Counted from the first letter of the stretch, positions 41,010 through 58,954 are shown. The stretch is DNA of 64,000 nt from an uncultured Planctomycetales bacterium (GCA_964374105.1 CAYJXI010000008.1:2589-66588), one strand, 5' to 3'. Notes: generated by a model from the letters alone, not told the origin. Translations and numbers: made by a program.

Positions 41010-41076
41010 TTATCTCCCAGTTTTCATTATTGTTTGATCGGACAATTTTTTAAAAATTATTCGGAGTCCAAGTAGT

Positions 41077-41832
41077 CTAGTAATATATAAAGACACATAT
41101 TAAAACTAACACGATTACGGAAAAAGCTATTCTAGGATAAACCGCAAAGGGTTTCGGAGATAATGTTAGCATTAACGTTAAATGTCTCCATCCATCTCTA
41201 AAGGTTTTTAAGTGAGGTATCCGTCCAGAGAAGCTCGGGAAAAAATTGATGGGTATTTCCTCGATACTTAATTTCTTTATAGTTGCTTGAATGATCATTT
41301 CTGATGCAAATTCCATGCCTTTACATTGCAAATTAAGTCTTTCAATGGCTTCTTTTTTAAAAGCCCTCATGCCACAATTCACATCCGATATTTTTGAACC
41401 ATAAAATAATCTTAAGACCCATGTCAAGACAGGGGTACCTAAGTAGCGATGTAGCTGTGGCATAGCATTTTTGTGAATTTTTCCGCCGAGACGATTTCCT
41501 ATAACAAGATCTGCGCCATTTCGCAATAAGCTAACAAAATCCTTCAATTCCAAAAAATTATATGTATCGTCCCCATCTCCCATAATAACCATCTGACCAA
41601 CTGCTTCTTTAATCCCTGTCCTTACCGCACTGCCATACCCCTTTTCTTTCTCAAATACAATTCTGGCACCGGCGTCTTTAGCTCGTTGCCGCGATTGATC
41701 TGTTGATCCATTATCAACAACAACAACCTCTCCCGAGAGGCCTTCTTGTTTCAAGGCTGCAAAGGCCTTTTTCACACAAAGACCAATGGTTTTCTCTTCA
41801 TTCAAACAGGGAATAACGACACTTATGTCCAT
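41077..41832 (-). CDS. GT2 polyprenyl-phosphate sugar synthase (GtrB/ArnC/DPM1-like) with C-terminal TM anchor
   Basis: MDISVVIPCLNEEKTI...VVVVDNGSTDQS...MGDGDD and a C-terminal hydrophobic helix. Confidence 0.7.
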   Translation of the reverse strand: MDISVVIPCLNEEKTIGLCVKKAFAALKQEGLSGEVVVVDNGSTDQSRQRAKDAGARIVFEKEKGYGSAVRTGIKEAVGQMVIMGDGDDTYNFLELKDFVSLLRNGADLVIGNRLGGKIHKNAMPQLHRYLGTPVLTWVLRLFYGSKISDVNCGMRAFKKEAIERLNLQCKGMEFASEMIIQATIKKLSIEEIPINFFPSFSGRIPHLKTFRDGWRHLTLMLTLSPKPFAVYPRIAFSVIVLVLICVFIYY

Positions 41833-43259
41833 TTAAAATTTCTTTTTGTAGTCGCCATCCAGCCTAAAAATCGGCACATTTTAAGGACTTGACGTAAAGG
41901 GTACTCTTTGATGATATTGTTCAAAATATAGGATGGGCGGTAATAGAATTTTCTAAAGGCTTTTTCACGAAAATACACAACTTCTTGAGAGGAAAGGGTC
42001 CCGTTATTGACAATCGAATATCCCCCAAAATCGTATTGTGACCACCGGTCGGCCTCAATCCACCTGTTCTCACGGGCCATTTCTCCAAACTCGGTTTTAG
42101 GGTAAGGAACGGCACAGTAGCTTTGGATAAAATCTAATTTAAGTTCAAGCATGAAATCAATGGTTTGATTGGCCGTTTCCTTTGTTTCTCCCGGCAATCC
42201 AAAAATAAAATGCCCCATTGTTTTAATGCCGGCTTTTTTAACTAATTTGACACAACGTCTCACATCATCCAGGGTCTGCTCCTTCTTTGAATTATCTAAA
42301 ATTTTCTGATTCCCACTTTCTATCCCTAACCCTAACAAATAACAGCCGGCTTCTTTCATTTTTATAATAAGATCATATTCTACAAGATCTACACGTGTTG
42401 TAGCCGCCCATTTGATGTTTAAATTATGATCAATAATGGCATTGCATATTTCAAAGGCGAACTCCTTATCTATTGTGAAAACTTCATCCCAGAATAAGAA
42501 TTCTTTTATACCGTATTGGAACTTACACTCTTTAATTTCGTTAATTATATATTCTACGGAATGTTTGCGTGTTTTTTTCCCGGAGTAAGGGGCGACAATA
42601 CAGTATGTGCATGAGTATGGACAACCTCGAGCTAGGTTAATAAGTGTAAATGTATTGCCATTATGGGGAAGCCGGTAGCGGCCATTTTTAAATAAATCAC
42701 GAGCTGGGAAAGGAAGAGTATCCAGATTTTGTTGTAAAGGGCGTTTGGGATTGATTTGGAGTACCTCGTCCTTTCTAACAATAAGACCTTGAATTTGATC
42801 AAAGTTGTTTTTTCCCGCATTTAATGTGGTTAGCAATTCCCTAAAAGTGTCTTCGGGCTCGCCATAAATACAAAAGTCTAAGTAGGGGTGTTGGCGAAGC
42901 GCTTCCTTTTCAAGCAGAGTAAAATAAACTCCAAAAGCGGCTAGTTTGATATCGGGGAATGATTTTTTAACTGATTCAGCAACCGACATATCCATATCAA
43001 TCGATGGGAACCCAGTATTAAACAGAATGAGGTTTGGATTAAATGTTCTGATATCATTCAGTAAATCTTGTAACGTCCAATTTTCAACATTGCCATCAAA
43101 AAAGCGAACCCTACCATACGATTTAGCGATTTGTGTCAGTATACCCAGTGTAATCGGAGGCCAAGCTGTCGCCCATGAGGATGCTTTTTGCATACAACGC
43201 CCTTCACGTATGTACGCACTGTTTTTATCAACGGTTGGATTTAATAGGTATGTTTTCAC
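41823..43259 (-). CDS. B12-binding (class B) radical SAM protein
   Basis: LARGCPYSCTYC motif and N-terminal B12-domain pattern. Confidence 0.75.
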   Translation of the reverse strand: MKTYLLNPTVDKNSAYIREGRCMQKASSWATAWPPITLGILTQIAKSYGRVRFFDGNVENWTLQDLLNDIRTFNPNLILFNTGFPSIDMDMSVAESVKKSFPDIKLAAFGVYFTLLEKEALRQHPYLDFCIYGEPEDTFRELLTTLNAGKNNFDQIQGLIVRKDEVLQINPKRPLQQNLDTLPFPARDLFKNGRYRLPHNGNTFTLINLARGCPYSCTYCIVAPYSGKKTRKHSVEYIINEIKECKFQYGIKEFLFWDEVFTIDKEFAFEICNAIIDHNLNIKWAATTRVDLVEYDLIIKMKEAGCYLLGLGIESGNQKILDNSKKEQTLDDVRRCVKLVKKAGIKTMGHFIFGLPGETKETANQTIDFMLELKLDFIQSYCAVPYPKTEFGEMARENRWIEADRWSQYDFGGYSIVNNGTLSSQEVVYFREKAFRKFYYRPSYILNNIIKEYPLRQVLKMCRFLGWMATTKRNFKWT

Positions 43260-43416
43260 TTTTTAAGATGAGAGTATTATTATGGTAGAAAACTATGGTT
43301 AGTATAACATAATCTAAATTAAATTTAAAATCTAAAATGTTTGGATTAGATTAAAACTTCTACTGATTCACGGCAATTGACACAAGTTAATCTATTAAAG
43401 TAAAAGTAAACTCATT

Positions 43417-44955
43417 TTATTTTAAGCGAAAGATCTGAATAGTGCCAAACCTTTTGAACGATGAAGTTTGCTTAGAAATGTTTTCAGGTAATGGATAGTA
43501 TGGATCCTCCCGATGGAAATAAAATTTAACAGTGTTATGATCTGATAAAGGGAGTTCGATATAATTAAAAGCGAAATGTTCGATTCCTTTGGGATGTTTC
43601 GGTAATGCCTTATAATGATATTTTGCTAACATATATAAAGCATTTAAGTCTGAGGGGTCCATTTCGGAAACAACCTGATAATTATTATTTGATTCTGATT
43701 GCATGTAGCTTATGGCATTCAAGTAATCTTTTGTTGTGCCAAAAGCGTTGTCCTTAACAAAACAAAGATATTTTGAAAATTCTGAAATGGAGGTAATAAA
43801 AAATATAACTGCTAAGCCGTACAAAATCATTTTTTTTATGCCAGTTTTATATTCGTGATGTAGATATTCAACCCCCATGGTTTTAAGAATAGCAATAAGC
43901 GGGATAATTGTATAAAGATACCTTGCATGACAATCTGCCATACGTAGCAGATTTACGGTGATGACTGAGGCTACGCATATCAGAATAAACGAAAGAGCAG
44001 TGGGTTTTTTGAATAAAGTTTTCTTATCATTTTTTAGAAACTTCATGATGGGGTAGACGAATGCGATCAGTCCAAATCCCACTGAAAGTCCTAGTAGCAT
44101 AAATCTAAATATATCTGTCTCATAAAAGTTTTTTCCAAGAAGAAACATATATTCCTCAAAAGGTATGGGTACTGCGAACAAAAATGTCCATAAAAAGGCC
44201 TTCAAGGCATTTTGCGGGTGGTCAAAAAATAAATCGGAACGAATATTCATTAGAATATCCCTAATATCCTGAAAATTGTGTTGAAAAAGATAAAGAATAT
44301 AGGGTGTGTATAACAAAAAACAGATCAGCAGTCCTAGGAGCTGATACTGCAATGAGGGTTTTATCCGGAAGAAAATAAAACAACAAAGCATAGCCAATCC
44401 TAAAGCCAAATGGGCGAGGTCAATTTGTGAAGTCAGCGCAAATAAAGGAAGTAGAAATATCTGGCTTGCGCTTTGAGGTTTCTGCACAGCTCGATACAGG
44501 ACCCAAAAAAATAGGGCTCCAAACAATAGGACATAATTGGGAGCAAATACTTCTCGGCTGAAAATGTTAACATTAAGATTTACAGTCATAAAAAGACAGG
44601 GTAGTACTCCTCCCATAAACAGTAGATTCATTTCTCTTGTCATAAAAAAAACGACTAGAATTGTTAATGAGGAAAGAAGACCTAAGAATATAACGGCAGC
44701 ATAAGGATGATCAGTAAAAAGGTGGGGAATACTCATGAGAAGATAAACAAACCCGCCGGGTGTGCGTACTGTTTTTTTAAGGTAATTAATCTCTATCCCA
44801 GAAATGGGGAAATACTCACCGTTTGAAGTTTGTACCGCCCTTTCATAATCCCTTGGGTTATCAGGGCCTTCCATATTTGAAATGCCGATATTCTGCCAAT
44901 GCATAAACAGTGAAAAAAGAAATATATAAGTCAGGGGATGTTTAAAGAGTTTCAT
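43417..44955 (-). CDS. Polytopic membrane protein, unknown (possible GT-C type)
   Basis: More than 10 TM segments. Confidence 0.4.
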   Translation of the reverse strand: MKLFKHPLTYIFLFSLFMHWQNIGISNMEGPDNPRDYERAVQTSNGEYFPISGIEINYLKKTVRTPGGFVYLLMSIPHLFTDHPYAAVIFLGLLSSLTILVVFFMTREMNLLFMGGVLPCLFMTVNLNVNIFSREVFAPNYVLLFGALFFWVLYRAVQKPQSASQIFLLPLFALTSQIDLAHLALGLAMLCCFIFFRIKPSLQYQLLGLLICFLLYTPYILYLFQHNFQDIRDILMNIRSDLFFDHPQNALKAFLWTFLFAVPIPFEEYMFLLGKNFYETDIFRFMLLGLSVGFGLIAFVYPIMKFLKNDKKTLFKKPTALSFILICVASVITVNLLRMADCHARYLYTIIPLIAILKTMGVEYLHHEYKTGIKKMILYGLAVIFFITSISEFSKYLCFVKDNAFGTTKDYLNAISYMQSESNNNYQVVSEMDPSDLNALYMLAKYHYKALPKHPKGIEHFAFNYIELPLSDHNTVKFYFHREDPYYPLPENISKQTSSFKRFGTIQIFRLK

Positions 44956-44960
44956 AAAAG

Positions 44961-46481
44961 TTATTTTCTTTTAAATAGATAAAAATCATCCTCTATCGCT
45001 AAAGTTTCCCACGCATTGTTATTTAATAACTCAGTAAGCTCTTCCTTGATCTTTTCGTCATTCCAGAAATATTGCCCTGCTCCCATGTACATATTTTTAT
45101 TGTGGATCAAGATATAATCAACAGCATAATAATCATATTGATTATCTAAGAATTCTATGATCTTTTTTCGTGAGGATAAAGGAGGGAGTAAATCTCCTGT
45201 CGCTGCCACGGAAATAAGTGGATCCTTGGGGATCATATTCACCATACGCCAAGCTATTCTGTCGGCCTTATCCATCTGGTAGAACCTTGGGTCATAAATG
45301 TTTGTAATGTTTATAAACCGGTCGTCCGCTATCCTATAAACGTCAGCTCGATGTGGTCCTCCAATGATATTAGGGGCGAAATTCGATAGGAAACAGCCGA
45401 GAAACACCAACAAAGACAATATGGTAGGGCAATGTTTCTTAAAGATATTTATTAATTTTCTATCATGACATCCTTCTTCGGTGGGGTAAGCAGCAGAAAT
45501 CTTTTTAATGAAAAATATCGTTCCAATAAAAATAAAAGGCACAAGGTTAGAAATATAATGAGCTCGTTGAAAAAGAAAATCTTCCGTATTGACTATAAGG
45601 AAGATACTGGGCAATCCCAGCAGTATTTCCGGTGTAAACAAGGGGAAGAGTAAGACCGGCAGAAACAGCTTAAAGAAACATTCGATTTTTATATGAGAGA
45701 AATAAGAGGATAAGGGAAGAGGATTTAGGGATGTAAGGGAACTTGCGATGTCTGAAATCACTGTACAAGATTCACAAATGGGCTCTTTACCAAATTTGTT
45801 GGAAAGGATCACATAGCCCACCAGAAAGAAGATGGAAAGCAAACCCATGAAGAGATATACCCTGCTATCAATTTTGTTGAAATCTCTTCTTTTAATAAAA
45901 AGATATGTTGCGAGCAAGGTCATGTAAGATGGTGTTTCCGTTTTGCATAGCATGACTAAAATTGAGCATACATTAAACTGGTTTTTTTTCCCAACCAGAG
46001 TTGCATAAAAAGTGAATAAGAGAAGGGGAATAGTATAGATTGAGGTGTCTCCATCTAAAAAGTTAAGTGAATTTTTGGGAGCATACAACAGATAGGCAAT
46101 TGCTAATAATACAGCCGCTTGCTTATTTTTAAGGAAGTTCTCTGCGATAACATAAATAGCTATGGCCGCAATAGCTAAACTGGTAGTGACAACGAAAAAA
46201 AGTGTATAAATGTATGGCACACAAAAATAGAAGGCCGAAATAAGGATGACAAATGGTGGAATCTGCAGACGATCGTGCTTATAAAAGTTGAAATAATGAC
46301 TCATATGCCCTTGGGATAAGTTCCAACATAAATGATTGGCGGCAGCCAAATCCTCCCATTCGTAGCTAAAAAAAGCTTTATAGCGTAATACGCTAAGTGT
46401 GAAAAATATGGCTACATAGACAATGATGCAGAAAATAACGCAGATAAATGCCCTGTCAATTTTACAAATTATTTTTTTCAA
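44961..46481 (-). CDS. Polytopic membrane protein with C-terminal soluble domain, unknown
   Basis: N-terminal multi-TM region and a C-terminal about 150-aa hydrophilic domain. Confidence 0.4.
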   Translation of the reverse strand: MKKIICKIDRAFICVIFCIIVYVAIFFTLSVLRYKAFFSYEWEDLAAANHLCWNLSQGHMSHYFNFYKHDRLQIPPFVILISAFYFCVPYIYTLFFVVTTSLAIAAIAIYVIAENFLKNKQAAVLLAIAYLLYAPKNSLNFLDGDTSIYTIPLLLFTFYATLVGKKNQFNVCSILVMLCKTETPSYMTLLATYLFIKRRDFNKIDSRVYLFMGLLSIFFLVGYVILSNKFGKEPICESCTVISDIASSLTSLNPLPLSSYFSHIKIECFFKLFLPVLLFPLFTPEILLGLPSIFLIVNTEDFLFQRAHYISNLVPFIFIGTIFFIKKISAAYPTEEGCHDRKLINIFKKHCPTILSLLVFLGCFLSNFAPNIIGGPHRADVYRIADDRFINITNIYDPRFYQMDKADRIAWRMVNMIPKDPLISVAATGDLLPPLSSRKKIIEFLDNQYDYYAVDYILIHNKNMYMGAGQYFWNDEKIKEELTELLNNNAWETLAIEDDFYLFKRK

Positions 46482-46518
46482 TTATATTTAAGATTAAGAT
46501 AGATCTTTTGGAAAAATA

Positions 46519-47730
46519 TTAATGAAAACAGAAAATGGCTTTCATGAAGACGAGGGTATGTTGGTATATTCTTAAAATATGGTATTTGATTCTGATAACG
46601 AGATCAGGATTCTTATTGGTATATTTGCAACTTCTTGCGCCTCCCCTATCAGAATAAGCAAAGCCGACAAAATAATCAAAATGCCTTAATACCGCTAACG
46701 TCTTAAAGAAATCCCGCCAGCCTTCTCCCGGAAAGCCAACCATGGCATGTGTAGAAATGAAAGTTTTGGGAGATATTTTCTTAATATGTTTAATAACATT
46801 CATCACTTCACGGATATCATAATTTCGATTCATCTCGCTCAGGACTCTGTTAGAACCGCTTTGGATGGGGATGTAGACAGAATTAAGATCAATATTTCTG
46901 AAGGCATCTAGAAGTTCATCTCGGTACCGTAAAATCCAAAAGGGGTTTGTTTCTCCAAGATCAATTTTCCGGTTCCCGAATCTATTCGATATGGTTTTCA
47001 GCAGTCTGGGCAAGTTTAGGCCTATGTCCAGGCCATAAGGTCCGCAGTCATCCGACACGAGGTGGATCGTTTTGGCAAAATCACTGTTATTTTCTATGTC
47101 CTGAATGATGTGTTCCGGATTTCTGGATTTGACTTTTCCGATCGCTTTTTTGATAACACAGAAATTGCAGTTTGACGCGCAGCCGGTATTGATTTGTATA
47201 TCGAATTTGTTTTTGAAGTAAACTTGGTCAAATAGTTTCCGGAAGTATGATTTTTTCCCAAATACTCTTAAGAAGATTTTGCATACGATAAAATTATAGA
47301 ATTTAGAGAAACCGCTGTCCTGAATTTTGTAATAATCCTGAAATTCATCATGCATGCAGTATTCAGTCACATCATCGAACCTCACCTGGTTAAAGAATAT
47401 TGGGTCAAGTTCCTTAAGCTCGTTTATTAGCAAAATGTTTCCTGGGATGCTTGTTATAGCTTGTCCGTTTATTTTATTTAAGCAGCCGATCGAAATCACC
47501 TTAGATTTGTTTCTACTATAGAATTGAAACAGATTAACTGTTGCCATTTCAAATTCTTTCATGAACCCGCAGGTGTTGACGATTACATAATCGGCATGGC
47601 TGAAATTGCTTACAAAAGTATGCCCGTTTCGTTTTAGATAAGAATACACCTTGCTTAAGGTGATTGTATTCGGTTTGCACGCTTTGTTGGAACTGTCTAA
47701 ATAGATTTTAAATTTTGCCATGGGTGTCAT
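46519..47730 (-). CDS. Methylthiotransferase-family radical SAM (MiaB/RimO-like, non-canonical)
   Basis: MTTase N-domain Cys triad (KAC, VIVNTCGF, IGCL). Radical SAM CASNCNFCVIKKAIGKVKSRNPEHIIQDIE matches CxxxCxFCxI...RSR...I..E of MTTases. Confidence 0.55.
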   Translation of the reverse strand: MTPMAKFKIYLDSSNKACKPNTITLSKVYSYLKRNGHTFVSNFSHADYVIVNTCGFMKEFEMATVNLFQFYSRNKSKVISIGCLNKINGQAITSIPGNILLINELKELDPIFFNQVRFDDVTEYCMHDEFQDYYKIQDSGFSKFYNFIVCKIFLRVFGKKSYFRKLFDQVYFKNKFDIQINTGCASNCNFCVIKKAIGKVKSRNPEHIIQDIENNSDFAKTIHLVSDDCGPYGLDIGLNLPRLLKTISNRFGNRKIDLGETNPFWILRYRDELLDAFRNIDLNSVYIPIQSGSNRVLSEMNRNYDIREVMNVIKHIKKISPKTFISTHAMVGFPGEGWRDFFKTLAVLRHFDYFVGFAYSDRGGARSCKYTNKNPDLVIRIKYHILRIYQHTLVFMKAIFCFH

Positions 47731-47742
47731 CTTTATTTCGTA

Positions 47743-48780
47743 TTACAGTGAACTCATTTTGGCATTCACGAATCTTTTTCGTTTGCTTATGAGAATCGGC
47801 TGATATTTGCTTCTCTTATCCAATGAAAATAAAATACCACCTATAAATGACAAGAACATAACAATATGTGTTGTGAGAAAGACAAAGGGGAGGACCCCGA
47901 ATACAACGGGATGCTTTTTAAGATATTTCCATGAAAATCCAATTGCTAAGGAAAGATAGGATATTCCTGCAATACATAATGTAGTATGTAAATGCTGAGG
48001 GAAGAGCAGACCTATTCCTGATAGGATCCCGAAAACGACGATGGCCAGTTTTATAAATGGCATTTTCCCATAGATTTCGTTGAATAAGACAGCGTTAATC
48101 CCTGTGTTAAAACGGGTAATCATTTTCTTTTTCAAATAACCAACAGGAAATGGCTCTACAATATGGTGGACATTTAACTCAGGGATGACGAAGAAAGAAT
48201 ATCCCAAATACGAAGCAATATAAAAAAATTCAATGTCATCGATGTAATAAGAAGAAGTCTCGTTAAACCCTCCCACGGCTTCCCATACGCTTCTTTTGAT
48301 AAGACAGTTGCATAAGGGCATGTTATAAAAATTCACTTTTCTGACGTTTTCGGCATGGGTGTCTTCAAATCCTTCCAGAAAGAAAGAATCATTAGCCGCG
48401 CCTGCTAACTGATAAGGTAATGAGGCTTTTTCATCAAAATGAGAGAGGGGACCGCAAACGCCATCGCACGGATGATCATGTAAACTTTTTATGGCCTGGT
48501 CAACCCAATTACGGGCCACAATAATATCGTCATCGAGAAATGCAACGAGTTCTGCCTGTGTGTGCTTTACACCTCTATTCCTGCGCATGCTTGGATGGAG
48601 AGTGTTTTCTATCAGGTGGGTGATTTTAACATCTGTTGGGGGCAGATCGATTATGTAGTCGTCTGCCATCACCAAGATGATTTCAAATTGGTTATGATCG
48701 TATGTTTGGTGAATTAATTGTTTCAGGCAGTGAGATAATCTCTGCGGTCTTGTGACAGGTATGATGATCCCCAGTTTCAT
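47743..48780 (-). CDS. GT2-family glycosyltransferase with C-terminal TM helices
   Basis: MKLGIIIPVTRPQRLSHCL...VAFLDDDIIV (DxD) and C-terminal hydrophobic segments. Confidence 0.65.
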   Translation of the reverse strand: MKLGIIIPVTRPQRLSHCLKQLIHQTYDHNQFEIILVMADDYIIDLPPTDVKITHLIENTLHPSMRRNRGVKHTQAELVAFLDDDIIVARNWVDQAIKSLHDHPCDGVCGPLSHFDEKASLPYQLAGAANDSFFLEGFEDTHAENVRKVNFYNMPLCNCLIKRSVWEAVGGFNETSSYYIDDIEFFYIASYLGYSFFVIPELNVHHIVEPFPVGYLKKKMITRFNTGINAVLFNEIYGKMPFIKLAIVVFGILSGIGLLFPQHLHTTLCIAGISYLSLAIGFSWKYLKKHPVVFGVLPFVFLTTHIVMFLSFIGGILFSLDKRSKYQPILISKRKRFVNAKMSSL

Positions 48781-50213
48781 TGTCCATTCTTTGAATCAGC
48801 AGGAACCCATTTTAACTTTAACCATAGATTGCAAATGATATCCCTCAAGATAAGCGGATTACCTATTTTGTTCGGAGAATAGAGTCGCAGACTTTTCACA
48901 ATGCGAAAGACCCTGATAGGGTTTGAATACCACTTGCGGTAAAAACTTTTTATCGCTCTGCTGGCTTCATCATTGCTATTATAAATAATATTTTGGTAGG
49001 AGCGGTCCTCAAAAACGGCTTCATTATCTTCATTTAAAGATTGATCTTTATACAATCCTGTTGTCGGTAAGGCTATATATTTTGACAAAGTTACGAAATC
49101 CGTATCTAATTCAAAGGCCAAATCGAGTGTTTTTTTGTAGTCTTCTTTATTTTCCCAAGGGAAACCTATCAGAAGAAATATTTCCGTGGCGACTCCATGC
49201 TTTTTAGCCAACGCAACGCCTTTTTTGACATCATCGAGCGAAAGGTCTTTTTTGAGCCGTTCAATCGTTTTGGGGCTGCCTGATTCGGGCGCAAAATTAA
49301 CCACCCACAAGCCGGCTTCTTTTAGCTTCCGCATTGTTTCTTCATCAATAAAATCTGCTCTGATACCGCTCGTAAAATGCAGCTTTACCTTTATGCCCCT
49401 TCGTATAATTTCATCGCAAATTTCTATGACCCTATTTTTATTCAACGTAAAATTCTCATCAACAATGCCGATATCCTTGATGCCAAATTTTGTTACTTGC
49501 CATTCTATCTCGTCAACCACATTGTTGGGAGATCGTGTTCTAAAATTCCTTCCCATATTATGATAACAAAATGTGCACTCATAAGGACATCCCCGCGATG
49601 TGATGATGTAAGAAGACGGCCATTCTCTGGAAAACATGATGTGATACTTTTTTATGTCAATTTTGTCTAAAGCTGGGAATGGCAAGGGGTCGAGGTCCTG
49701 CATCCAATCCCTTGTTCCGGTGAAATTCAGCCGATCATTTTCTCGATAATATAATCCTTTAATTTCTGGCTGTGGTTTTCTGGAAAGATACTCATAAAAT
49801 GTTTGCTCGGCCTCACCGACTACGACCACATCAATATATTTTTCTCGCATGAGGATCTTGGGGTAAGCGCTGGCAAACGGGCCTCCAAAGATTATTCTCG
49901 TGTCAGGTTTCTTTTGCTTTATGGAGAGCGCTGTGGTCAGACTTTTTTTAATATTATTAATGGTCACGCTAAAACCAATGGTGTCATATTTTGTGTAGTC
50001 AACATGTTTTGAGTGATCAACATTGCGATCAAGGAAATCACCAGGTATTCCCCTGTGTTCCAGAAATGACAAGATATACAGAGGTCCTAGGTGGATGGCC
50101 GTTCCCAAATATTCCGGTTTAGCAGGGGATTCAACAACTAAGAGTAATTTAGTTTGAGTAGCTGTCCCCCTAGGCCTATTACCCTTTTCTAATAAAACAT
50201 TTTCATGCTGCAT
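48777..50213 (-). CDS. B12-binding radical SAM, tandem paralog A
   Basis: SRGCPYECTFCYHNMGRNFRTRSP. The start at 50213 (MQHENV..., aligning KLLLVVESP to KILIVVERS of its paralogs) is preferred over the 50267 ORF-track start, which overlaps the upstream gene by 37 nt. Confidence 0.7.
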   Translation of the reverse strand: MQHENVLLEKGNRPRGTATQTKLLLVVESPAKPEYLGTAIHLGPLYILSFLEHRGIPGDFLDRNVDHSKHVDYTKYDTIGFSVTINNIKKSLTTALSIKQKKPDTRIIFGGPFASAYPKILMREKYIDVVVVGEAEQTFYEYLSRKPQPEIKGLYYRENDRLNFTGTRDWMQDLDPLPFPALDKIDIKKYHIMFSREWPSSYIITSRGCPYECTFCYHNMGRNFRTRSPNNVVDEIEWQVTKFGIKDIGIVDENFTLNKNRVIEICDEIIRRGIKVKLHFTSGIRADFIDEETMRKLKEAGLWVVNFAPESGSPKTIERLKKDLSLDDVKKGVALAKKHGVATEIFLLIGFPWENKEDYKKTLDLAFELDTDFVTLSKYIALPTTGLYKDQSLNEDNEAVFEDRSYQNIIYNSNDEASRAIKSFYRKWYSNPIRVFRIVKSLRLYSPNKIGNPLILRDIICNLWLKLKWVPADSKNGQ

Positions 50214-50230
50214 TGAACAGGCTTTCAAGG

Positions 50231-51613
50231 TTATTTCTCCCTGATGGGTAATCCTAATTTCATCCACGAATTAACCATCATAATTTTGAACATATTGGGG
50301 TTAAATAATTTGTTGGGTGAATAAAGATTCAATATTCTTGCCAAACGCATCACCCTGCGTGGATCTGCATACCATCTACGATAAAAGTCTTTTACCATTT
50401 TAGAGGCTTCATCGTCTCCTTGGTAGGCGTAATTATTGTACAATCGATCGCTAAAGAGGTTGATTTTATCTTCTTGTGTCAATTCACTTGGTTGCAGTTG
50501 TGTGCCTGGAAAGGGGATATATCTGTTCAATGAGACAAAATCAACATCTAATTCATACGGCACGGCAAGGGTTTGTCTATAATCTTCCTTGGATTCCCAA
50601 GGCAGGCCTAACAAGAGGAATATTTCCGTTGCAACGCCATATTTTTTGGCTATCCCTATTGCCTTTTGCATATCGTTGCTTTTAAATCCCTTTTTCAATC
50701 GCTCGATTGTCTGAGGGCTACCTGATTCTGGCGCAAAATTAATAACCCATAAGCCGGCGTCCCGTAATTTCCTCATCATTTCATCATCGACGAAGTCTGC
50801 TCTTACACCATTGGAGAACTGCAATTTTACTTTAATCTTCCTTTGGATGATCTCATCGCAAATTTCAATGACTCTTTTGCGGTCAAGGGTAAAATTGTCA
50901 TCAACAATCCCGATCTCTTTGACACCTAAAGAATTGATTTGCCATTCGATTTCATCGACAACATTCTGGGGGGATCGTACCCGCCATTTTTTCCCCATAT
51001 TATGAAAACAAAATGTGCAAGGATAGGGGCAACCCCGGGTTGTCATAATATAGGAAATAGGAGAGGCCTTTGCAAAAAAGCTATGGTATTTTTTAATGTT
51101 GGTTTTATATAGCGCGGGGAAGGGGAGAGCATCGAGATCTTTGATCCACGGCCTGTTTCCCGTAAAGTGGACATTCCCATTTTCCCGAAAGTATAAGCCC
51201 AGAATATCTTTTTTATTTTTCCGGATGACGCATTCATAAAATGTCTCTTCGCCTTCTCCAATGACAACAGCATCAATATACTCTTCCTGCATGAGAAGCT
51301 GCGGATAGGAGCTGGCGAAGGGCCCTCCAAAAATGATTTGAGTTTCGGGTTTATTACGTTTAATGGATTGTGCCGTGAAGAGGCTCCCTTTTATGTTATT
51401 GACGTTTGTGCTGAAGCCCACTATCTCATAGTTGGCGAGATCAATAATTTTAGTAGGATCAACCGTTCGGTCTAAAAAGTCTCCGTTGATTCCTTTTTGT
51501 TCAAGATAGGAAAGAAGATACAAGGGTCCTAACCAAAGCTGATTTTCCTGACAGTAGGGTAGCGTGCTCCTTTCCACAACAATCAATATCTTAGGCGCAG
51601 CATTTTTAATCAC
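50231..51613 (-). CDS. B12-binding radical SAM, tandem paralog B
   Basis: TRGCPYPCTFCFHNMGKKWRVRSP. About 75% aa identity to paralog C by eye. Confidence 0.75.
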   Translation of the reverse strand: MIKNAAPKILIVVERSTLPYCQENQLWLGPLYLLSYLEQKGINGDFLDRTVDPTKIIDLANYEIVGFSTNVNNIKGSLFTAQSIKRNKPETQIIFGGPFASSYPQLLMQEEYIDAVVIGEGEETFYECVIRKNKKDILGLYFRENGNVHFTGNRPWIKDLDALPFPALYKTNIKKYHSFFAKASPISYIMTTRGCPYPCTFCFHNMGKKWRVRSPQNVVDEIEWQINSLGVKEIGIVDDNFTLDRKRVIEICDEIIQRKIKVKLQFSNGVRADFVDDEMMRKLRDAGLWVINFAPESGSPQTIERLKKGFKSNDMQKAIGIAKKYGVATEIFLLLGLPWESKEDYRQTLAVPYELDVDFVSLNRYIPFPGTQLQPSELTQEDKINLFSDRLYNNYAYQGDDEASKMVKDFYRRWYADPRRVMRLARILNLYSPNKLFNPNMFKIMMVNSWMKLGLPIREK

Positions 51614-51618
51614 GGCAT

Positions 51619-53028
51619 TTATCCTTTCACATAGTTGCGATATAGATTACTCTGCCAAGGCAGTGAGCCTAATTTCAGCCACGAATTTTCCATGATATTT
51701 TTTAACATATCAGGGTTAAATAGTTTTTTGGGGGAATAAAGATTCAACATCTTGGCTATGCGTAGAACTCGTCGCGGGCTAGAATACCATTTGCCATAAA
51801 AGGCTCGCATCATTTGCGACACTTCATCCTTTCTATCATAGGCGAAACTATTGTATAATCGGTCGTTAAAAAGGTTTTCTTTATCTTCTTGCGTCAATTC
51901 GTTTGGCTGAAGGGGTGTGCCTGGAAATGGAATGTATCTGTGTAATCCAACAAAATCCACATCTAATTCATACGGTAAGGCAAGGGTTTGTTGATAATCT
52001 TCTTTGGTTTCCCAAGGGAAGCCTAGCATGAGAAATATTTCCGTGGCGACACCATATTTTTTGGCGATAGCTACTGCCTTTTGCATATCATCTTCTTTAA
52101 ATCCTTTTTTCAAACGTTCAATCGTCTGAGGGCTTCCTGATTCAGGAGCAAAATTGATCACCCATAAACCAGCATCGCTTAATTTTTTCATCATTTCATC
52201 ATCAACAAAATCAGCTCTAACCCCATTGGTGAACTGTAATTTGACGTTAATCTTCCTTCGAATGATCTCATCGCAAACGTCGATCACTCTTTTGCGGTCA
52301 AGGGTGAAGTTGTCATCAATAATGCCGATTTCTTTGATACTTAAGGAATTGACCTGCCATTCGATTTCATCAACGACGTTTTGAGGGGAACGTGCACGCC
52401 ATTTTTTTCCCATGTTGTGAAAGCAAAATGTACAAGGGTAAGGGCAACCCCGGGTTGTGATAAGGTAGGAAATAGGTGAGGTTTTTGCAGAAAGGTTTTG
52501 GTATTTTTGAATTTTGGTCTTATGTAATGCCGGGAAGGGAAGAGAATCAAGGTTTTTGATCCAAGGCCTGGGACCCGTAAAATGGACACGGCCACATCCC
52601 CGATAATATAAGCCTTGAATCTCACTTTCTTTCTTCCCGCAGACAAATTCATAAAAACTTTCTTCGCCTTCGCCCACCACAGCCGCATCGATATATTCTT
52701 CTCCCATAAGAAGCTGTGGATAGGAACTGGCAAACGGTCCTCCAAAGACGACTTTAATATCAGGTTTAATACGTTTGATTTTTTGCGCTGTTGCAAGGCT
52801 TAATTTTATGTTATTGACATTCGCGCTGAAACCCACAACATCGTATGATGAATAGTCAATAACTCTTAATGGCTCAACGCTTCGATCAACAAAATCCCCG
52901 CTGATTCCTTTTTGTTCGAGATAAGAGAGGATATACAAAGGGCCTAGCCAAAACTGAGATCCTTGATAGGATGGTGCCGTACTTCTCTCAACGATAATCA
53001 ATATTTTAGGCTGAGAATGGTCAATCAT
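51619..53028 (-). CDS. B12-binding radical SAM, tandem paralog C
   Basis: TRGCPYPCTFCFHNMGKKWRARSP. Confidence 0.75.
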   Translation of the reverse strand: MIDHSQPKILIIVERSTAPSYQGSQFWLGPLYILSYLEQKGISGDFVDRSVEPLRVIDYSSYDVVGFSANVNNIKLSLATAQKIKRIKPDIKVVFGGPFASSYPQLLMGEEYIDAAVVGEGEESFYEFVCGKKESEIQGLYYRGCGRVHFTGPRPWIKNLDSLPFPALHKTKIQKYQNLSAKTSPISYLITTRGCPYPCTFCFHNMGKKWRARSPQNVVDEIEWQVNSLSIKEIGIIDDNFTLDRKRVIDVCDEIIRRKINVKLQFTNGVRADFVDDEMMKKLSDAGLWVINFAPESGSPQTIERLKKGFKEDDMQKAVAIAKKYGVATEIFLMLGFPWETKEDYQQTLALPYELDVDFVGLHRYIPFPGTPLQPNELTQEDKENLFNDRLYNSFAYDRKDEVSQMMRAFYGKWYSSPRRVLRIAKMLNLYSPKKLFNPDMLKNIMENSWLKLGSLPWQSNLYRNYVKG

Positions 53029-53033
53029 GGGGT

Positions 53034-54380
53034 TTATCCTTTTGCATAAAAGACTTCCAGGCCGTACTTAACAAATCTCAAGAATGATTTTATACCAATT
53101 TTATTAATGATTTCCATTATCTTGAGAGGTCTTGAATAGAAGCGGTAGTAGGCATTTCTGTATATCCTTTCGAGAAAATCATCACTTTGTTTGTCATAGT
53201 AAGTGGTCATGGATTCCTGGATCCGGCCGCTTAAGGCAGGATTTTTCTCGTAAACTTCGGTTCCTTTAAAGGGTACAAGTTTGCTTAAATCCATCATGAG
53301 CGGGTCAAGCTCAAAGGCAAATTCGACCGTCTTTTTCATATCTTCCTCTGTCTGAAAGGGGAGCCCGATAAGGAAAAATCCATAGAAGACAATATCCAAT
53401 TCCTTACACCATTTTGCCGCGTGACGGAACTGGTCTATTTTTGCCGCCTTCTTGATTTTTTTGAGGCTTTCGGCATCACCGACTTCCGGGGCAATGGCGA
53501 TCTTCCAGCATCCGGCTTCTTTCATGGCCTGAAGCAGTTCTTTGGTCATTTTGTTGACGGTGATACCGTTGGCCAGTTGCCAGTCAAGTTTGATCCCTTT
53601 TTTTCTTTTCAATTCACATATTTGATAAACACGGTCGATGTCATAAGTGAAATTATCGTCTTCAATAGAAATTTCCTTGACACCAATTTCTTTTTCAAGC
53701 CATTCCATTTCCGCCACAATATTTTCCGGTGAGCGTGAACGCCATTTTCTGCCTGTTACTTTTTGGCTGCAGAAGATGCAGTGCGAAGGGCACCCGCGGG
53801 AGGTGACCATGGAGACCAGCGGTCTTTTTTTGTAAGAATTGATGTAATATTTGTCAACGCTGATCATGTCATAGGCCGGGAAAGGCAGGGTGTCCAACTC
53901 CCAGACGGGATCATATTTGTTGATAATTTTAGAGATTTTTGTTTCGTTTTGCCTGAATTCTTCCATGGGGCCGTTTTTGGCCGTTAAGAAATCCAGGATC
54001 ACTTTTTCTGCCTCATACTGGATAATGTAATCGATAGAAGCCTGGTCATACTCCGCGGGCTCGATGGTAGGGTGAGGGCCGCCGACAAGGGTAACGACAT
54101 CTTTGTCAAGCTCTTTGATAGCCGAGGCCAATTTAATAGTCATATTCCGGTTTGAAAAATTTGAAGACAACCCAACGGTGGTCGGTTTGTATTCATTCAC
54201 AATTGAGGCTAAATCTTTTTCCCAATTCCTGCTTATATTTAAATCCACAACCTTGACATTGACACCATGTTGTCTTAGGTAGGAGGCGATGTATAAAATA
54301 CCCAGCGGGGGTTGGATGGAAATATAATATAGCTTATCCGAAGGGGGATTGATTAATAAAACCTTTTCATTTTTATCCAT
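53034..54380 (-). CDS. B12-binding radical SAM (HpnJ-like position in a GT2-deacetylase-rSAM triad)
   Basis: SRGCPSHCIFCSQKVTGRKWRSRSP and an N-terminal B12 domain. Confidence 0.7.
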   Translation of the reverse strand: MDKNEKVLLINPPSDKLYYISIQPPLGILYIASYLRQHGVNVKVVDLNISRNWEKDLASIVNEYKPTTVGLSSNFSNRNMTIKLASAIKELDKDVVTLVGGPHPTIEPAEYDQASIDYIIQYEAEKVILDFLTAKNGPMEEFRQNETKISKIINKYDPVWELDTLPFPAYDMISVDKYYINSYKKRPLVSMVTSRGCPSHCIFCSQKVTGRKWRSRSPENIVAEMEWLEKEIGVKEISIEDDNFTYDIDRVYQICELKRKKGIKLDWQLANGITVNKMTKELLQAMKEAGCWKIAIAPEVGDAESLKKIKKAAKIDQFRHAAKWCKELDIVFYGFFLIGLPFQTEEDMKKTVEFAFELDPLMMDLSKLVPFKGTEVYEKNPALSGRIQESMTTYYDKQSDDFLERIYRNAYYRFYSRPLKIMEIINKIGIKSFLRFVKYGLEVFYAKG

Positions 54381-55242
54381 AGAAGCTCCGATAATTTATT
54401 AAATTGACGTTCAATTGATGGATTAAATGGAAAATTTCTGGATTGGTTAAGGCCTCGCGTTCCGTCTGCCACCCGTAATTCCAGTGTTGATAGGGGCCCG
54501 CCAAGAGTTTGTTCCCTGGATGACACATCAATTCGGTCACTCCCTGGTTTAGATATGATAAATATTTGTTTAAATTTTTCTCATTCATTTTTCCGGAAGC
54601 ACCAAGTCCTAAAAAATAATCTGCACGCTTCCCATCAAGATTATTTTTTTCTATAGGAATGAAATTTAAAAGACTCCTTATACAGAGCCATTTCAGGAAA
54701 TGGCTAAAAGAAGCACATCCGGCGATGTTTTCTTCAAGAGGATAACGGACAAAATGAATGCGGTATTGTTGGCATACCCGTTTCACGATACTCCATAGGC
54801 TTGGGAATATATGGATGTGCTGATGGCTATCGAGATGCGTTGGAAGTAAACCAGCATCCAGAACTTTTTTGATTTGGGCTTCCCACTCATGCTCAATCTC
54901 AGCAAGGCAGATCTTCCTTGTAAGCAGTCTCAAGATAACCTCCCAGCAGTTCTCATAAAATCGATTTGCCCGATTCAGAAGAGTTGGGATATATCGCTGT
55001 GGTAAAACGGGGGAAGTATGTGTTAAAGCCAAATGGACTCCCACCCCCAAACCAATATTTTCCTTGATGAGCTTCAGCGCATGATCAAAGGCCTCACCGG
55101 TCGCAAGGAGGGAGACACTGGTGACAATGCCTTTTTGGTGCGATTCAATAATGCCATTATTAATTTCTTCGGTTAAACCGAAATCATCGGCATTAACAAT
55201 GAGATATTTTTTCGTTTGTTTTATCGAGTCAAGAGTCATCAA
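54373..55242 (-). CDS. YdjC/ChbG-family carbohydrate deacetylase (HpnK-like)
   Basis: YLIVNADDFGLTEEINNGIIESHQKGIVTSVSLLATG and THLDSHQHIH metal-binding motif. Confidence 0.65.
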   Translation of the reverse strand: MMTLDSIKQTKKYLIVNADDFGLTEEINNGIIESHQKGIVTSVSLLATGEAFDHALKLIKENIGLGVGVHLALTHTSPVLPQRYIPTLLNRANRFYENCWEVILRLLTRKICLAEIEHEWEAQIKKVLDAGLLPTHLDSHQHIHIFPSLWSIVKRVCQQYRIHFVRYPLEENIAGCASFSHFLKWLCIRSLLNFIPIEKNNLDGKRADYFLGLGASGKMNEKNLNKYLSYLNQGVTELMCHPGNKLLAGPYQHWNYGWQTEREALTNPEIFHLIHQLNVNLINYRSFYG

Positions 55243-55253
55243 TAGCTATAAAT

Positions 55254-55982
55254 CTAATAATAGAGCGATCTGATTTCGGGATAATATTTTATTATTTCGT
55301 ATATGGTTCTCGAAATGTTACTGAGAGACGCAAGATGTGATCGTCCATATTTTCGTTGGTTAAAGGTGACCGGTATATTGATGACTTTAAAACCATTGTA
55401 ATAACTTTTTAGTAAAAATTCAGCGCTGATAAATGATCCGTTAGCGGAAAGGGAGATTTTATCTAACACGTCTCGCTTAAATATCGTCATCGCAAAATTG
55501 ATGTCATTTGTTTTATAACCAAAGATAATCCTTATGAGGAAATTATAAGTGCGAGAATACACCGTACGCAAAAAAGATTCTCTCTTCCCAACTCTATATC
55601 CATGGACAACATCTGTTTCCTCAAGTAGCGTAACGGCATCTTTTAATATGGAAAAATCAAAAGGCATATCGACATCGGTATAGACGATAGTGTTTTTCTT
55701 CGCCTTATTAAATCCTGTTTTCAATGCCGCCCCCAAGCCTTTATTTTTGTCATGTTGAAAAACTTTTATTCGAGAATCCCCAGCCGCAAGCTTGAGTGCA
55801 ATGGTTTCTGATCCATCAAAGCTGGCATCATTGACGAGAATGATTTCATAGTCGGCCTCCAGGGAATTCAACACATTTTGGGCTTTGGCTATGGTCATTT
55901 GTAAATATTCAATTTCATTATAGAAGGGCATAACCAGAGAAAGGGATGTTTTCATTTTATCTTCCATTTGGGAAAAATTCAT
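55254..55982 (-). CDS. GT2-family glycosyltransferase (HpnI-like position)
   Basis: LSLVMPFYNEIEYL...EIILVNDASFDGS...YTDVDMPFD. Confidence 0.7.
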   Translation of the reverse strand: MNFSQMEDKMKTSLSLVMPFYNEIEYLQMTIAKAQNVLNSLEADYEIILVNDASFDGSETIALKLAAGDSRIKVFQHDKNKGLGAALKTGFNKAKKNTIVYTDVDMPFDFSILKDAVTLLEETDVVHGYRVGKRESFLRTVYSRTYNFLIRIIFGYKTNDINFAMTIFKRDVLDKISLSANGSFISAEFLLKSYYNGFKVINIPVTFNQRKYGRSHLASLSNISRTIYEIIKYYPEIRSLYY

Positions 55983-56016
55983 AATAAACGAACAGGATGA
56001 AAACTTTTCTAAATGA

Positions 56017-57462
56017 CTAATTTCTTGCTAATAGGTATTCATAGATTCGCTTAAAAATAAAATAAATCTGATAAGGCGATTTGATCTTACGTAATAGCTT
56101 AATAAGGATATGCCATCGCAAATAAAACCGCAGGTAGGCTCGTCTGACTATCGTTCGCTGGATATTTTTTTCTTTATTGTCTTGAAATCGATTGGTGATG
56201 TGAGCGGGAGAGGAAAGCCGTTCGTAATTGAGCTGATTTACGGCATCCTGACCATAGACGCGATTGATCACAGATCCCCCCGGGAGCGGCAGAAAATTGC
56301 TAAAATCAGCTACGTCTAACGGTAAGGAGCGAGCAAATTGTATTGTCTTATTCATATCGGCTTCTGTCTCACCGGGAAACCCCAGTATAAAAAACCCAGT
56401 GACATCAAAATCGAATTTTTTAATGATCTCCATTTTGGAAACGATCTCTTTAAGGCGCAATCCTTTTCTCATTCTATTTAAGGTTTCTTGGGAACCAGAT
56501 TCTATGGCGACAAATAATGAATAACATCCGGCTTGTCTCATTTTTTCTAGCAAAGGTTCATTCAGGCTGTCAATCCGAACACCATTGGGACAACTCCAGG
56601 CAATGTTTACCTTTTGATCTAAAAGCACATTACAAAACGATGTAACAAATTCATTATCTTCGGTGAAATCATCATCCAAAAAATGGAACTCTTCAATGTT
56701 ATATTCTTTTTTAAGATGAAGGATCTCCTGGATAATATGGGGGATGCTTCTTTTCCTGATTTTTCTCCCCGTCACGGTATGGGCAGCACAAAAGGAACAA
56801 TAATGAGGACATCCCCTCGTTGCAAAGAGAGGGGCAAACCGGCTTTTTTTATAAAAAACCCCTTGGCAGGTTTTAAAATATTTTTTAGGGTCAACCACAT
56901 CCCAGGCTGGGAATCCAAAAGAATCGAGATTATCTTCAAACGATTGGGGGTTGATGCGTACTTGGTGGTCGTCACGATAAATAAGCCCGGGGATATGTCT
57001 TAATCTGTCTGGACGATAGGTCCCATTCGTTTTAACCGATTCTAAAAGTTGAGGGAAGCCGATTTCCGCTTCCCCTTTGAAGGCAAAGTCCACGTTATCC
57101 AAAAATTGCATTGTATGTTCCGCAGCAGCGGAAGAGTGTGGTCCTCCTACCACGGTCAATATATCTTTTGAAACTCCTTTTTTTATTGCCTCGGTGACAC
57201 GTTTGACCATAGGCACATCATGCGATAACATGCTTAGTCCAATAACATTCGGTTTTTTTTCCTTAATGATTGTTATAAGCTCAGCCAAGGAAAAATTGTC
57301 GCAAACACAATCCAAGATTTGGGTTTTTTCACAATGATTTTTGATGGATGTAGCCAGGTAACCTAACCCAAGGGGAGGCATGATATGAAAGACAGCCTGT
57401 TGAGGTTGAGGGGGTTTAACTAACAGTACTTTCATTTCATTAAGGCAGATGTGTATAGACAA
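56017..57462 (-). CDS. B12-binding (class B) radical SAM protein
   Basis: TRGCPHYCSFCAAHTVTGRKIRKRS. Confidence 0.75.
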   Translation of the reverse strand: MSIHICLNEMKVLLVKPPQPQQAVFHIMPPLGLGYLATSIKNHCEKTQILDCVCDNFSLAELITIIKEKKPNVIGLSMLSHDVPMVKRVTEAIKKGVSKDILTVVGGPHSSAAAEHTMQFLDNVDFAFKGEAEIGFPQLLESVKTNGTYRPDRLRHIPGLIYRDDHQVRINPQSFEDNLDSFGFPAWDVVDPKKYFKTCQGVFYKKSRFAPLFATRGCPHYCSFCAAHTVTGRKIRKRSIPHIIQEILHLKKEYNIEEFHFLDDDFTEDNEFVTSFCNVLLDQKVNIAWSCPNGVRIDSLNEPLLEKMRQAGCYSLFVAIESGSQETLNRMRKGLRLKEIVSKMEIIKKFDFDVTGFFILGFPGETEADMNKTIQFARSLPLDVADFSNFLPLPGGSVINRVYGQDAVNQLNYERLSSPAHITNRFQDNKEKNIQRTIVRRAYLRFYLRWHILIKLLRKIKSPYQIYFIFKRIYEYLLARN

Positions 57463-57583: not shown

Positions 57584-58954
57584 TTAATGTTGGATTGTCG
57601 ATAGAATCTCATTTGCGCGGCCGACTAACATCTTGTCGTTTGTTTTGGATAAGACCCAATAGCATCTATCAATAGCCCAATCATATTCGCCGGCCAGCCG
57701 GTAGATCTCAGCTTTGTTTAAATAGTAAACATACAACTCTTTTTTAGGAAGTGCAAATTGACTTTCCGGTAAATTGATAAAATAAATGGAATGGAGAAGA
57801 AAATAAATCATCAAACCCGTTATAACGAATTTAAAGAAACGGTGCTTTTGTAAAATATCGTTGAGCATATAAGAAAATAAGATAACACCCGGAAACAGGG
57901 TCATCCCTGCCCACCAATGATCATCCAGTAAGGAATAAGATCCCGCAATAAAGCTGGTTATCGTAAACACAAAGCCAAACATAAATAGAGAAAATTTTAT
58001 TAACTCAGTTTTATTTTTTTGTTTAAAACAATAAAAAAATCCCCAAAAAATTAATACCCCTAAAGGCCAATGAATCACAGGCAATTCATTGCTAAGCGCG
58101 CTTAAGAATATTAATTTGCCATCAGGTGCGATAAAAGAGATTGAATCGATATTTGAATCCCAAATAAACAAATGAAAATGTTCATTGAGAATAGGAAGCA
58201 ACTCAGCAAAATATAAATAAAATGATCTGAGGCTAACCCCCAAATCGAAGAAATGTTCACTGCTAATTTTGCTGAATTTATTCTCGTAACTCCAAAGCAA
58301 ATGGGGTGAGAAAATGAGGAACATGATCAAAAGCGAAAAATAAAATTCCTTACGTCTCAGCCAAAACCTGTGGTTTCTATTGACTATTAAATAAAAAAGG
58401 AGGGTTGAGGCAAATAAGACCATCCCCTCGTAAGCCAAACAACCAAACCCAATGAAAATAGCCGTAAACATCACATATTTTGCCTTCTGTGTATGCAGTC
58501 CTCGAAAAAAAGTATACAAAGCCAAAGGCATAAAAAAGAAAAATAAAGTCCCTTCATACGCAAAGCGTGTTACCCCGATATGATATTGGCTAAATGAGAG
58601 GAAATAAAGGGTCAAAAAAGCTGTTTTAGTTTTCAGATTTTCTTCTACGAGCTTGAATATAAAAAAAAGGCCCAAGGTCCCTAAGGCAACAAATAGCAGA
58701 CGAATTTCTAGCTGACCTGTACCGAAGAGAGCAACGCCTAGTTTAATGATATAAGTAGAGAGTATAGGGTTTTGTAAATCCTTATCCCCAATAGGGAGTT
58801 TCCAATGATCTCGAGCCAATGAGATATTTTTAATAAAATCGATGAGTTCTTGTTCATCAGGGATAAAAGGAACGAGACAGGATGTATAAAGCCGAAAAAG
58901 GCCGGCTATAATTAAGAGAAGGGATATTAGAAAAAACCGGGGCTTTCTTCTCAA
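57584..58954 (-). CDS. GT-C fold glycosyltransferase, ArnT/PMT_2-like
   Basis: FIPDEQELIDF...PILSTYIIKLGVALFGTGQLEIRLLFVALG matches the PMT_2 DE...KPPL...RL pattern. Multi-TM. Confidence 0.5.
   Translation of the reverse strand: MRRKPRFFLISLLLIIAGLFRLYTSCLVPFIPDEQELIDFIKNISLARDHWKLPIGDKDLQNPILSTYIIKLGVALFGTGQLEIRLLFVALGTLGLFFIFKLVEENLKTKTAFLTLYFLSFSQYHIGVTRFAYEGTLFFFFMPLALYTFFRGLHTQKAKYVMFTAIFIGFGCLAYEGMVLFASTLLFYLIVNRNHRFWLRRKEFYFSLLIMFLIFSPHLLWSYENKFSKISSEHFFDLGVSLRSFYLYFAELLPILNEHFHLFIWDSNIDSISFIAPDGKLIFLSALSNELPVIHWPLGVLIFWGFFYCFKQKNKTELIKFSLFMFGFVFTITSFIAGSYSLLDDHWWAGMTLFPGVILFSYMLNDILQKHRFFKFVITGLMIYFLLHSIYFINLPESQFALPKKELYVYYLNKAEIYRLAGEYDWAIDRCYWVLSKTNDKMLVGRANEILSTIQH

Follow-up and report, generated by a model that had tools for sequence, protein, structure and literature searches.

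Sets of paralogous radical SAM enzymes of class B, the class with a B12-binding domain, are known from several systems, including BotRMT1-3, PoyB/PoyC, GenK/GenD1, BchQ/BchR and HpnP/HpnR, as well as the multi-copy Hgm of archaea. In these sets, each member has its own regiospecificity or is responsible for its own step (PMC12931638). C-methylation is the commonest chemistry in the class, and a ring contraction has been proposed for HpnJ; there is precedent for several paralogues of differing regiospecificity in one pathway, and the sugar-modifying members include GenK, GenD1, MoeK5 and HpnJ (PMC12931638; PMC13459092). HpnJ itself belongs, with HpnI and HpnK, to the pathway for the cyclitol-ether head group of hopanoids (PMC13459092), and has been reported in genomes with SHC and HpnH (PMC12324291). 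Among the solved structures, PDB 9CCB is the methyl-coenzyme M reductase (MCR) glutamine C-methyltransferase, and AprD4 is listed outside the B12-dependent enzymes (PMC12931638). A related arrangement is found in a 64,000-nucleotide stretch of DNA from an uncultured Planctomycetales bacterium (GCA_964374105.1 CAYJXI010000008.1:2589-66588; "the window" below refers to this whole stretch), where three class-B-type radical SAM genes, here termed A, B and C, stand in tandem. These genes are old tandem paralogues and not the products of a recent triplication, and it is fairly probable that they occupy a fixed slot in a conserved envelope glycoconjugate cassette, in which they would tailor a lipid-linked amino sugar at different positions or steps.

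The array comprises A (48777..50267), B (50231..51613; 460 amino acids) and C (51619..53028; 469 amino acids), which lie head to tail on the minus strand as three open reading frames (ORFs) with exactly the boundaries given in an earlier sequence-only reading of the window. The motif which that reading had noticed is present in all three, as GCPYECTFCYHNMG in A and GCPYPCTFCFHNMG in B and C. The CxxxCxxC [4Fe-4S] motif of radical SAM proteins reads CPYECTFC in A and CPYPCTFC in B and C, and its three cysteines are invariant in 73 homologues. Each protein matches both the B12-binding domain PF02310 (49-59 bits, gathering cut-off 32.1) and the radical SAM domain PF04055 (73-85 bits, gathering cut-off 29.5). 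Between B and C, identity is 74.7% for the proteins and 79.0% for the DNA over 1354 nucleotides (nt); the sequence-only reading had put it at about 75% for the proteins, with long stretches of about 80% in nucleotides. A is more distant, at 59.0% (protein) and 71.7% (DNA) to B and 57.9% and 70.8% to C; overall, the DNA identity among the three varies with the alignment between 62 and 79%, i.e. the copies are 21-38% different.

The length of 496 amino acids originally assigned to A is correct for the longest ORF but probably not for the protein, as the GTG start at 50267 lies inside B, with an overlap of 37 nt. The start is more likely to be at 50228, a TTG with a GGAG box (50240-50237) ahead of it, or at 50213, an ATG, and either would yield a protein of about 478-483 amino acids. 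The A orthologue in a related metagenomic contig, L001, has 464 amino acids. At its other end, the stop codon of A overlaps the start of the downstream GT2 gene by 4 nt.

Recent tandem duplicates are expected to have a synonymous divergence (dS) near zero, to be missing from relatives as extra copies, and to group within their genome in trees. Relatives of the window were found by a homologue search with C followed by contig look-ups, and dS was calculated by the method of Nei and Gojobori. In this array, dS is not near zero, the copies are not missing from L001, and they do not group by genome. Between B and C, dS is 1.11, which is near saturation, and A is saturated against both (pS 0.77-0.81). 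In L001 the three genes recur in unchanged order, and this contig aligns collinearly to the window over 8980 nt at 80.6% DNA identity. The A orthologue (L001:12860-14254; L1_3) is 82% identical, the C orthologue (L001:10001-11413; L1_1) is 86-87% identical, and B has 84% identical orthologues in two other contigs (L007:8688-10064 and L012:8860-10236), so that each window copy is nearer to its counterpart elsewhere (82-87%) than to its neighbours in the array.

Neighbour-joining trees (200 bootstraps) strongly support the same pairs: A with L1_3 (100%), C with L1_1 (99.5-100%) and B with the first copy of L007/L012 (100%), and these ortholog pairs are also recovered when each domain is treated separately. 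The A clade is basal to all B/C-like genes (bootstrap 99-100%). This position is not a rate artefact, because A is nearly as close to the outgroup clade (46-50% identity) as B and C are (47-53%). Between the window and L001, dS for most cassette genes is 1.0-2.9; set against the B/C value of 1.11, this makes the B/C split at least as old as the split of the two lineages. The A lineage thus separated first, and B and C arose later by tandem duplication in place, both before the separation of at least three sampled lineages. The "duplication and divergence" of the sequence-only reading is correct as tandem paralogy over a long timescale, but the word "recent" has to be dropped.

The footprint of the B/C duplication is preserved at its edges. 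The repeat unit measures 1383 nt, its period is 1415 nt, and in both instances it starts some 20 nt ahead of the start codon. The C/B junction (51614..51633, minus strand), which marks the edge of the duplicated unit, consists of the tail of C (AAAGGATAA), a 5-nt spacer and the start of B, and is a near copy of the junction at 53029-53048 between C and the upstream radical SAM gene D (AAAGGATAAaccccATGATTGA for D/C against AAAGGATAAatgccGTGATTAA for C/B). These near-copied junctions indicate that B and C come from a tandem duplication in place, the unit of which included the tail of the upstream gene and the 5-nt spacer. Two Logan assemblies, ERR3478686 and ERR4904390, are 100% identical to the window over 9000 and 4853 bases spanning the array. 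Since it is reproduced base for base in two independent assemblies, the array cannot be an artefact of assembly; a collapse is likewise ruled out, with the copies 21-38% apart in DNA.

The suggestion that the array is prone to recombination is weakly supported, applying to the slot among lineages but not to the window. No B/C conversion tract was detected in the window by a GENECONV-style permutation test (P = 0.84), and no identical run there exceeds 20 nt. The first two copies of L001, by contrast, are identical over a run of 68 nt, and copy 2 has a mosaic pattern, resembling C in its middle part and B towards either end (P = 0.013); this is modest evidence for a gene-conversion tract. The slot holds a single copy in L003, two in L010, and a B-type, a D-like and a third-type copy in L007 and L012; the more distant L013, L014 and L015 have two copies, which form a clade of their own. 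This varying copy number, together with the tract in L001, implies long-term birth-and-death evolution of the slot, with conversion as an occasional event. In the window itself, nothing about the array points to instability at present.

The window and L001 have also diverged unevenly (46519-53028 versus L001:10001-16512): dS is only 0.36-0.51 for C, the membrane GT2 and a MiaB-like gene, as against 1.0-2.9 for D, E, the YdjC gene, the DUF2079 gene and others. This suggests an exchange of cassette segments between lineages by recombination. In the single-copy relative L003, an insertion sequence element (rve integrase and HTH_Tnp_1) lies inside the cassette at L003:4458-5530, which shows the locus to be open to rearrangement. 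The 13.7-kb contig of L010 contains a module of an array-type radical SAM gene, a membrane GT2 and a DUF2079 gene twice in inverted orientation (1-2784 and 10246-12784), with methyltransferase and EamA genes between the two.

A, B and C are each maintained as distinct, intact genes under purifying selection. The dN/dS ratio is 0.14 for B/C, 0.04-0.29 per domain, and no higher than 0.29 in every estimable domain and pair. All 15 residues that are invariant across the 73 homologues are preserved in the three copies, as are 30 of the 32 near-invariant residues; the other two are conservative D/E exchanges in A and its orthologue. Divergence is distributed unevenly over the protein. B and C are 86% identical in the radical SAM core (residues 186-365) but 66-67% identical in the Rossmann and C-terminal domains, and the corresponding figures for A against B or C are 68-69% and 43-54%. 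There are 32 sites that are fixed within ortholog pairs and unlike between B and C, and their density is 11 per 100 residues in the C-terminal domain compared to 4.4 in the core. This pattern is compatible with distinct substrate specificities of the paralogues, although it does not constitute proof of them.

By domain content and predicted structure, A, B and C are members of the class B radical SAM enzymes outside any curated family. An AlphaFold2 model of C (pLDDT 91.5, pTM 0.91) has the three-domain fold of the solved class B members, and Foldseek matches it to MgmA, TsrM, CysS, TokK and OxsB (E = 1e-20 to 1e-24) and also to AprD4. Cobalamin use by all three proteins is a plausible prediction. 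The best NCBIfam match is HpnJ (TIGR03471), with 167, 175 and 161 bits for A, B and C against a cut-off of 577.6. None of the other NCBIfam models reaches its cut-off either: BchE (TIGR02026) gives 135-153 bits with a cut-off of 481, MgmA/QCMT (TIGR04014) 103-119 bits with a cut-off of 360, and AprD4 (NF033070) 67-82 bits with a cut-off of 500. The BchE-like JGI name "anaerobic Mg-protoporphyrin IX monomethyl ester cyclase", carried by some homologues, is therefore unsupported given the failed BchE cut-off, and "YgiQ family", another JGI name for homologues, was rejected as a family assignment.

The array is embedded in a tightly packed block of minus-strand genes (39948-58954). The first gene of the block encodes a PMT_2 membrane glycosyltransferase of the ArnT/PMT-like GT-C type with about six transmembrane segments (57584..58954; 88 bits against 26.1). 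It is followed by radical SAM gene E, a 481-amino-acid ORF of the B12-binding type (56017..57462), by a small GT2 (55254..55982) resembling polyprenyl-phosphate sugar synthases (ArnC, PpgS, DPM1-like) and with AglJ also among its best matches, all below curated cut-offs, and by a YdjC-family deacetylase (54373..55242; PF04794, 221 bits), for which the best NCBIfam match is HpnK with 182 bits against a cut-off of 232.6. Radical SAM D (53034..54380; 448 amino acids) is an older paralogue, 30-34% identical to A, B and C, with HpnJ as its best NCBIfam match (187 bits against 577.6). Downstream of the array are a membrane-anchored GT2 of 345 amino acids (47743..48780), a MiaB/RimO-like radical SAM gene (46519..47730; UPF0004 and Radical_SAM domains), a DUF2079 polytopic membrane protein conserved in the cassette (44961..46481), a polytopic membrane protein with a weak PMT_2 match (43417..44955), radical SAM F of the B12-binding type (41823..43259), which has the highest HpnJ-like score in the block (245 bits, below cut-off), a GT2 resembling AglJ and dolichyl-phosphate hexose transferases (41077..41832), and a radical SAM/SPASM protein (39948..41009) whose place at the cassette end is conserved.

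The order YdjC, D, array, membrane GT2 is constant in all loci that span those genes (the window, L001, L003, L007, L012, L013/L014 and L015), with D directly upstream of the array at all loci and the membrane-anchored GT2 directly after the last array copy in every locus examined. In the distant relatives L013, L014 and L015, GT2 and YdjC are fused into a single protein of 503-513 amino acids. The GT2-YdjC-D triad is located at 53034-55982 in the window and at L013:7145-10010, L014:2001-4866 and L015:7110-10008. The MiaB/RimO-like gene, of the methylthiotransferase type, lies within the glycan cassette, is conserved in L001 and falls under the curated cut-offs for the tRNA and ribosomal-protein enzymes. 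The operon structure of the block is based on its tight spacing and overlaps only, as a promoter and terminator scan of 39800-59500 gave no excess over shuffled sequences; Rfam and tRNA scans of the window found nothing, including no cobalamin riboswitch.

In the route favoured for this cassette, an N-acetylhexosamine (HexNAc) would be attached by a GT2 to a lipid carrier, in all likelihood polyprenyl phosphate, and would then be deacetylated in its lipid-linked form by the YdjC enzyme. D, followed by A, B and C, may then modify the resulting lipid-linked amino sugar by radical chemistry on the cytoplasmic side, perhaps by C-methylation, with an HpnJ-like ring contraction as the alternative. 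The most likely division of labour among A, B and C is by position or by successive step, and the completed sugar could then be passed by the GT-C-type membrane transferases (PMT_2 and possibly DUF2079) to an acceptor beyond the membrane.

A number of observations weigh against this interpretation. The substrate, product and cofactor of A, B and C are predictions, and none of the three proteins reaches a curated NCBIfam cut-off. Cobalamin use is only predicted because the best TM-score of the C model is to AprD4, which is listed outside the B12-dependent set; in addition, A, B and C have GGPF where D and E have GGPH. No flippase of the GtrA or ArnE/F type was recognised among the window ORFs scanned, which include several polytopic proteins that match no family. 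The trees are neighbour-joining trees of mosaic genes, and the position they give to the second L001 copy (L1_2) has weak support (53-68%) and changes from domain to domain. Finally, the upstream (B/A) junction of A has no similarity to the D/C and C/B junctions and is missing the AAAGGATAA-plus-spacer signature; because it is unlike the other two, adjacency is all that speaks for an in-place origin of A.

It is possible, although unlikely, that the cassette instead acts on the head group of a membrane lipid, along the lines of HpnI/HpnK/HpnJ, by glycosylation, deacetylation and ring contraction to a cyclitol, and that A, B and C tailor this head group further. The GT2, YdjC and D proteins do mirror HpnI, HpnK and HpnJ of the published pathway (PMC13459092), the best matches are HpnK for YdjC (182 against 232.6) and HpnJ for A, B, C, D and F, and the GT2-YdjC fusion of the distant relatives fits as well. 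However, the HpnJ-model scores of those five proteins (160-245 bits) are far under the cut-off of 577.6, the scanned ORFs of the window include none with an SHC or HpnH domain, the small GT2 is most similar to polyprenyl-phosphate sugar synthases and not to HpnI, and the several GT-C-type transferases in the block argue for an external acceptor.

Two further alternatives to a trio of old in-place paralogues with different roles are rather improbable. In the first, A is a xenolog from a related lineage that was inserted beside B, leaving B and C as the only true tandem duplicates. The basal position of A, the detection of A-type genes only in the window and L001, the B/A junction without the duplicated AAAGGATAA-plus-spacer signature and a patchy cassette dS that fits recombination between relatives would all be expected, but loss of A from L003, L007 and L010 accounts for its distribution equally well, A has the same slot and orientation with a 4-nt overlap into the downstream GT2, and the GC content is uniform. 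In the second, the copies are redundant, kept for dosage or as a hetero-oligomer, which would be consistent with identical catalytic and invariant residues in all three and a highly conserved radical SAM core. Dosage copies are usually near-identical or homogenised, whereas these have long been kept as separate ortholog groups with 32 fixed B-versus-C differences concentrated in the C-terminal domain, and L003 manages with a single copy. The view of the sequence-only reading, a recent triplication of fast-diverging copies with ongoing unequal recombination, is very improbable: the head-to-tail genes, the duplicated B/C junction, the differing copy number among relatives and the L001 tract favour it, but a dS of 1.1 to saturation, the orthologous trio in L001 and B orthologue in L007/L012, the missing conversion signal between B and C in the window, and three identical assemblies do not.

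The old, slot-bound array lies in a window that is judged from its gene sequences to be from an Omnitrophota-like bacterium. For the glyceraldehyde-3-phosphate dehydrogenase (GAPDH) gene (18857-19903), the best named matches are all Candidatus Omnitrophota/Omnitrophica, with 80-86% identity; one GTDB-representative relative was found (label "uncultured Planctomycetales bacterium"). A chromosomal setting is shown by the even GC content and by the genes for PriA, Fmt and GAPDH. There are 11 B12-type radical SAM genes in the window, at 837-2348(+), 26313-28067(+), 31852-33333(-), 41823-43259(-), 48777-54380(-), 56017-57462(-), 59368-60831(+) and 62195-63493(+). Outside the array, they share only 20-34% identity with one another and with A, B and C, which points to an old and unusually dense family expansion within 64 kb.

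Elsewhere in the window, plus-strand genes at 2345-4174, 8770-9858 and 11995-12549 (GHMP kinase, nucleotidyltransferase, HAD phosphatase and GT9 heptosyltransferase-like) look like a nucleotide-heptose pathway that feeds this region of envelope glycan genes. The neighbourhood of the array cassette thus far described includes heptose, aminotransferase and GT9 genes. A second tandem pair, of GalT/HIT-like nucleotidyltransferase genes, abuts at 16745-17761 and 17761-18765 (+), with 43% identity. Four large polytopic membrane proteins (20109-21914, 22887-24536, 24547-26199 and 38052-39962, all on the plus strand) have about 7-12 predicted transmembrane segments and neither a Pfam match nor detectable similarity to one another, and may be additional GT-C-like transferases or flippases. 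In the distant relative L013, the same cassette adjoins an ORF of more than 6946 amino acids that runs off the locus (L013:1-1970) and recalls the giant proteins reported for Omnitrophota (bioRxiv 10.64898/2026.06.07.730766). A link to the S-layer glycan of anammox bacteria was considered and rejected: the Kuenenia paper (PMC5088730) reports an O-glycan that is methylated but gives no gene cluster, and the affinities of the window are with Omnitrophota instead of anammox bacteria.

As gene-family evolution, the triplication is ordinary, a case of old tandem paralogues retained by selection, and removing "recent" from its description also removes the hint of an unstable or mis-assembled locus. 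Of greater interest is the surrounding cassette, which is unusually rich in B12-type radical SAM genes. Full-text searches on Omnitrophota with radical SAM, and on DUF2079, YdjC and radical SAM together, turned up no account of a cassette like it; the papers retrieved that mention both Omnitrophota and radical SAM deal with giant proteins, glycerol dialkyl glycerol tetraether (GDGT) lipids and surveys of biosynthetic gene clusters. A bolder and doubtful extension is that the cassette makes an undescribed envelope component, a heavily radical-tailored lipid-linked amino sugar (e.g. multiply C-methylated or a cyclitol), with the number and type of array copies setting the pattern of modification. 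If so, lineages with one, two or three copies would show different surface chemistry, and the 11 B12-type radical SAM genes in 64 kb would represent a strategy of surface diversification by radical chemistry. If the paralogues do have distinct regiospecificities, they would also provide a compact natural set for studying substrate selection by class B radical SAM enzymes.

Three-component periplasmic glycosylation systems combine a GT2 of the GtrB/ArnC/PpgS type with a flippase and a GT-C transferase such as ArnT, YfhO or Rv3779, and deacetylation of a lipid-linked sugar has parallels in ArnD and the mycobacterial GalN pathway. The locus resembles these systems in having PMT_2-type GT-C proteins, beside a small GT2 whose best matches, below their cut-offs, are polyprenyl-phosphate sugar synthases, but differs in that a flippase is not recognised and in its many radical SAM tailoring enzymes, which are foreign to the known systems. 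The resemblance to HpnI/HpnK/HpnJ consists of the triad of GT2, YdjC deacetylase and B12-domain radical SAM protein. The differences are that scores here are below the equivalog cut-offs, the scanned window ORFs include no hopanoid core genes, the GT2 resembles polyprenyl-phosphate sugar synthases, and the block has extra radical SAM genes and GT-C transferases.

At the level of the individual enzymes, the closest solved structure is MgmA/QCMT (PDB 9CCB; sequence E = 9e-20, Foldseek E = 1.7e-24), with its Rossmann domain, radical SAM barrel and C-terminal domain in the same arrangement. The identity is only about 20%, and MgmA methylates a protein side chain in methanogens, whereas a protein substrate is not suggested here. 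AprD4 (PDB 6FD2), a radical SAM diol dehydratase that acts on the amino sugar of an aminoglycoside, gives the best TM-scores (0.70/0.72) and is of similar length, but is only 18% identical. The multi-paralog B12 radical SAM clusters resemble the array in having several paralogous class B genes of the same domain layout kept per pathway. The array differs from these in that its copies are directly tandem and closer to one another (58-75%) than the members of most such sets, and in that its substrate is a predicted one; moreover, it is found in the envelope-glycan cassette of an Omnitrophota-like bacterium and not in a cluster for an antibiotic, a pigment or a ribosomally synthesised and post-translationally modified peptide (RiPP).

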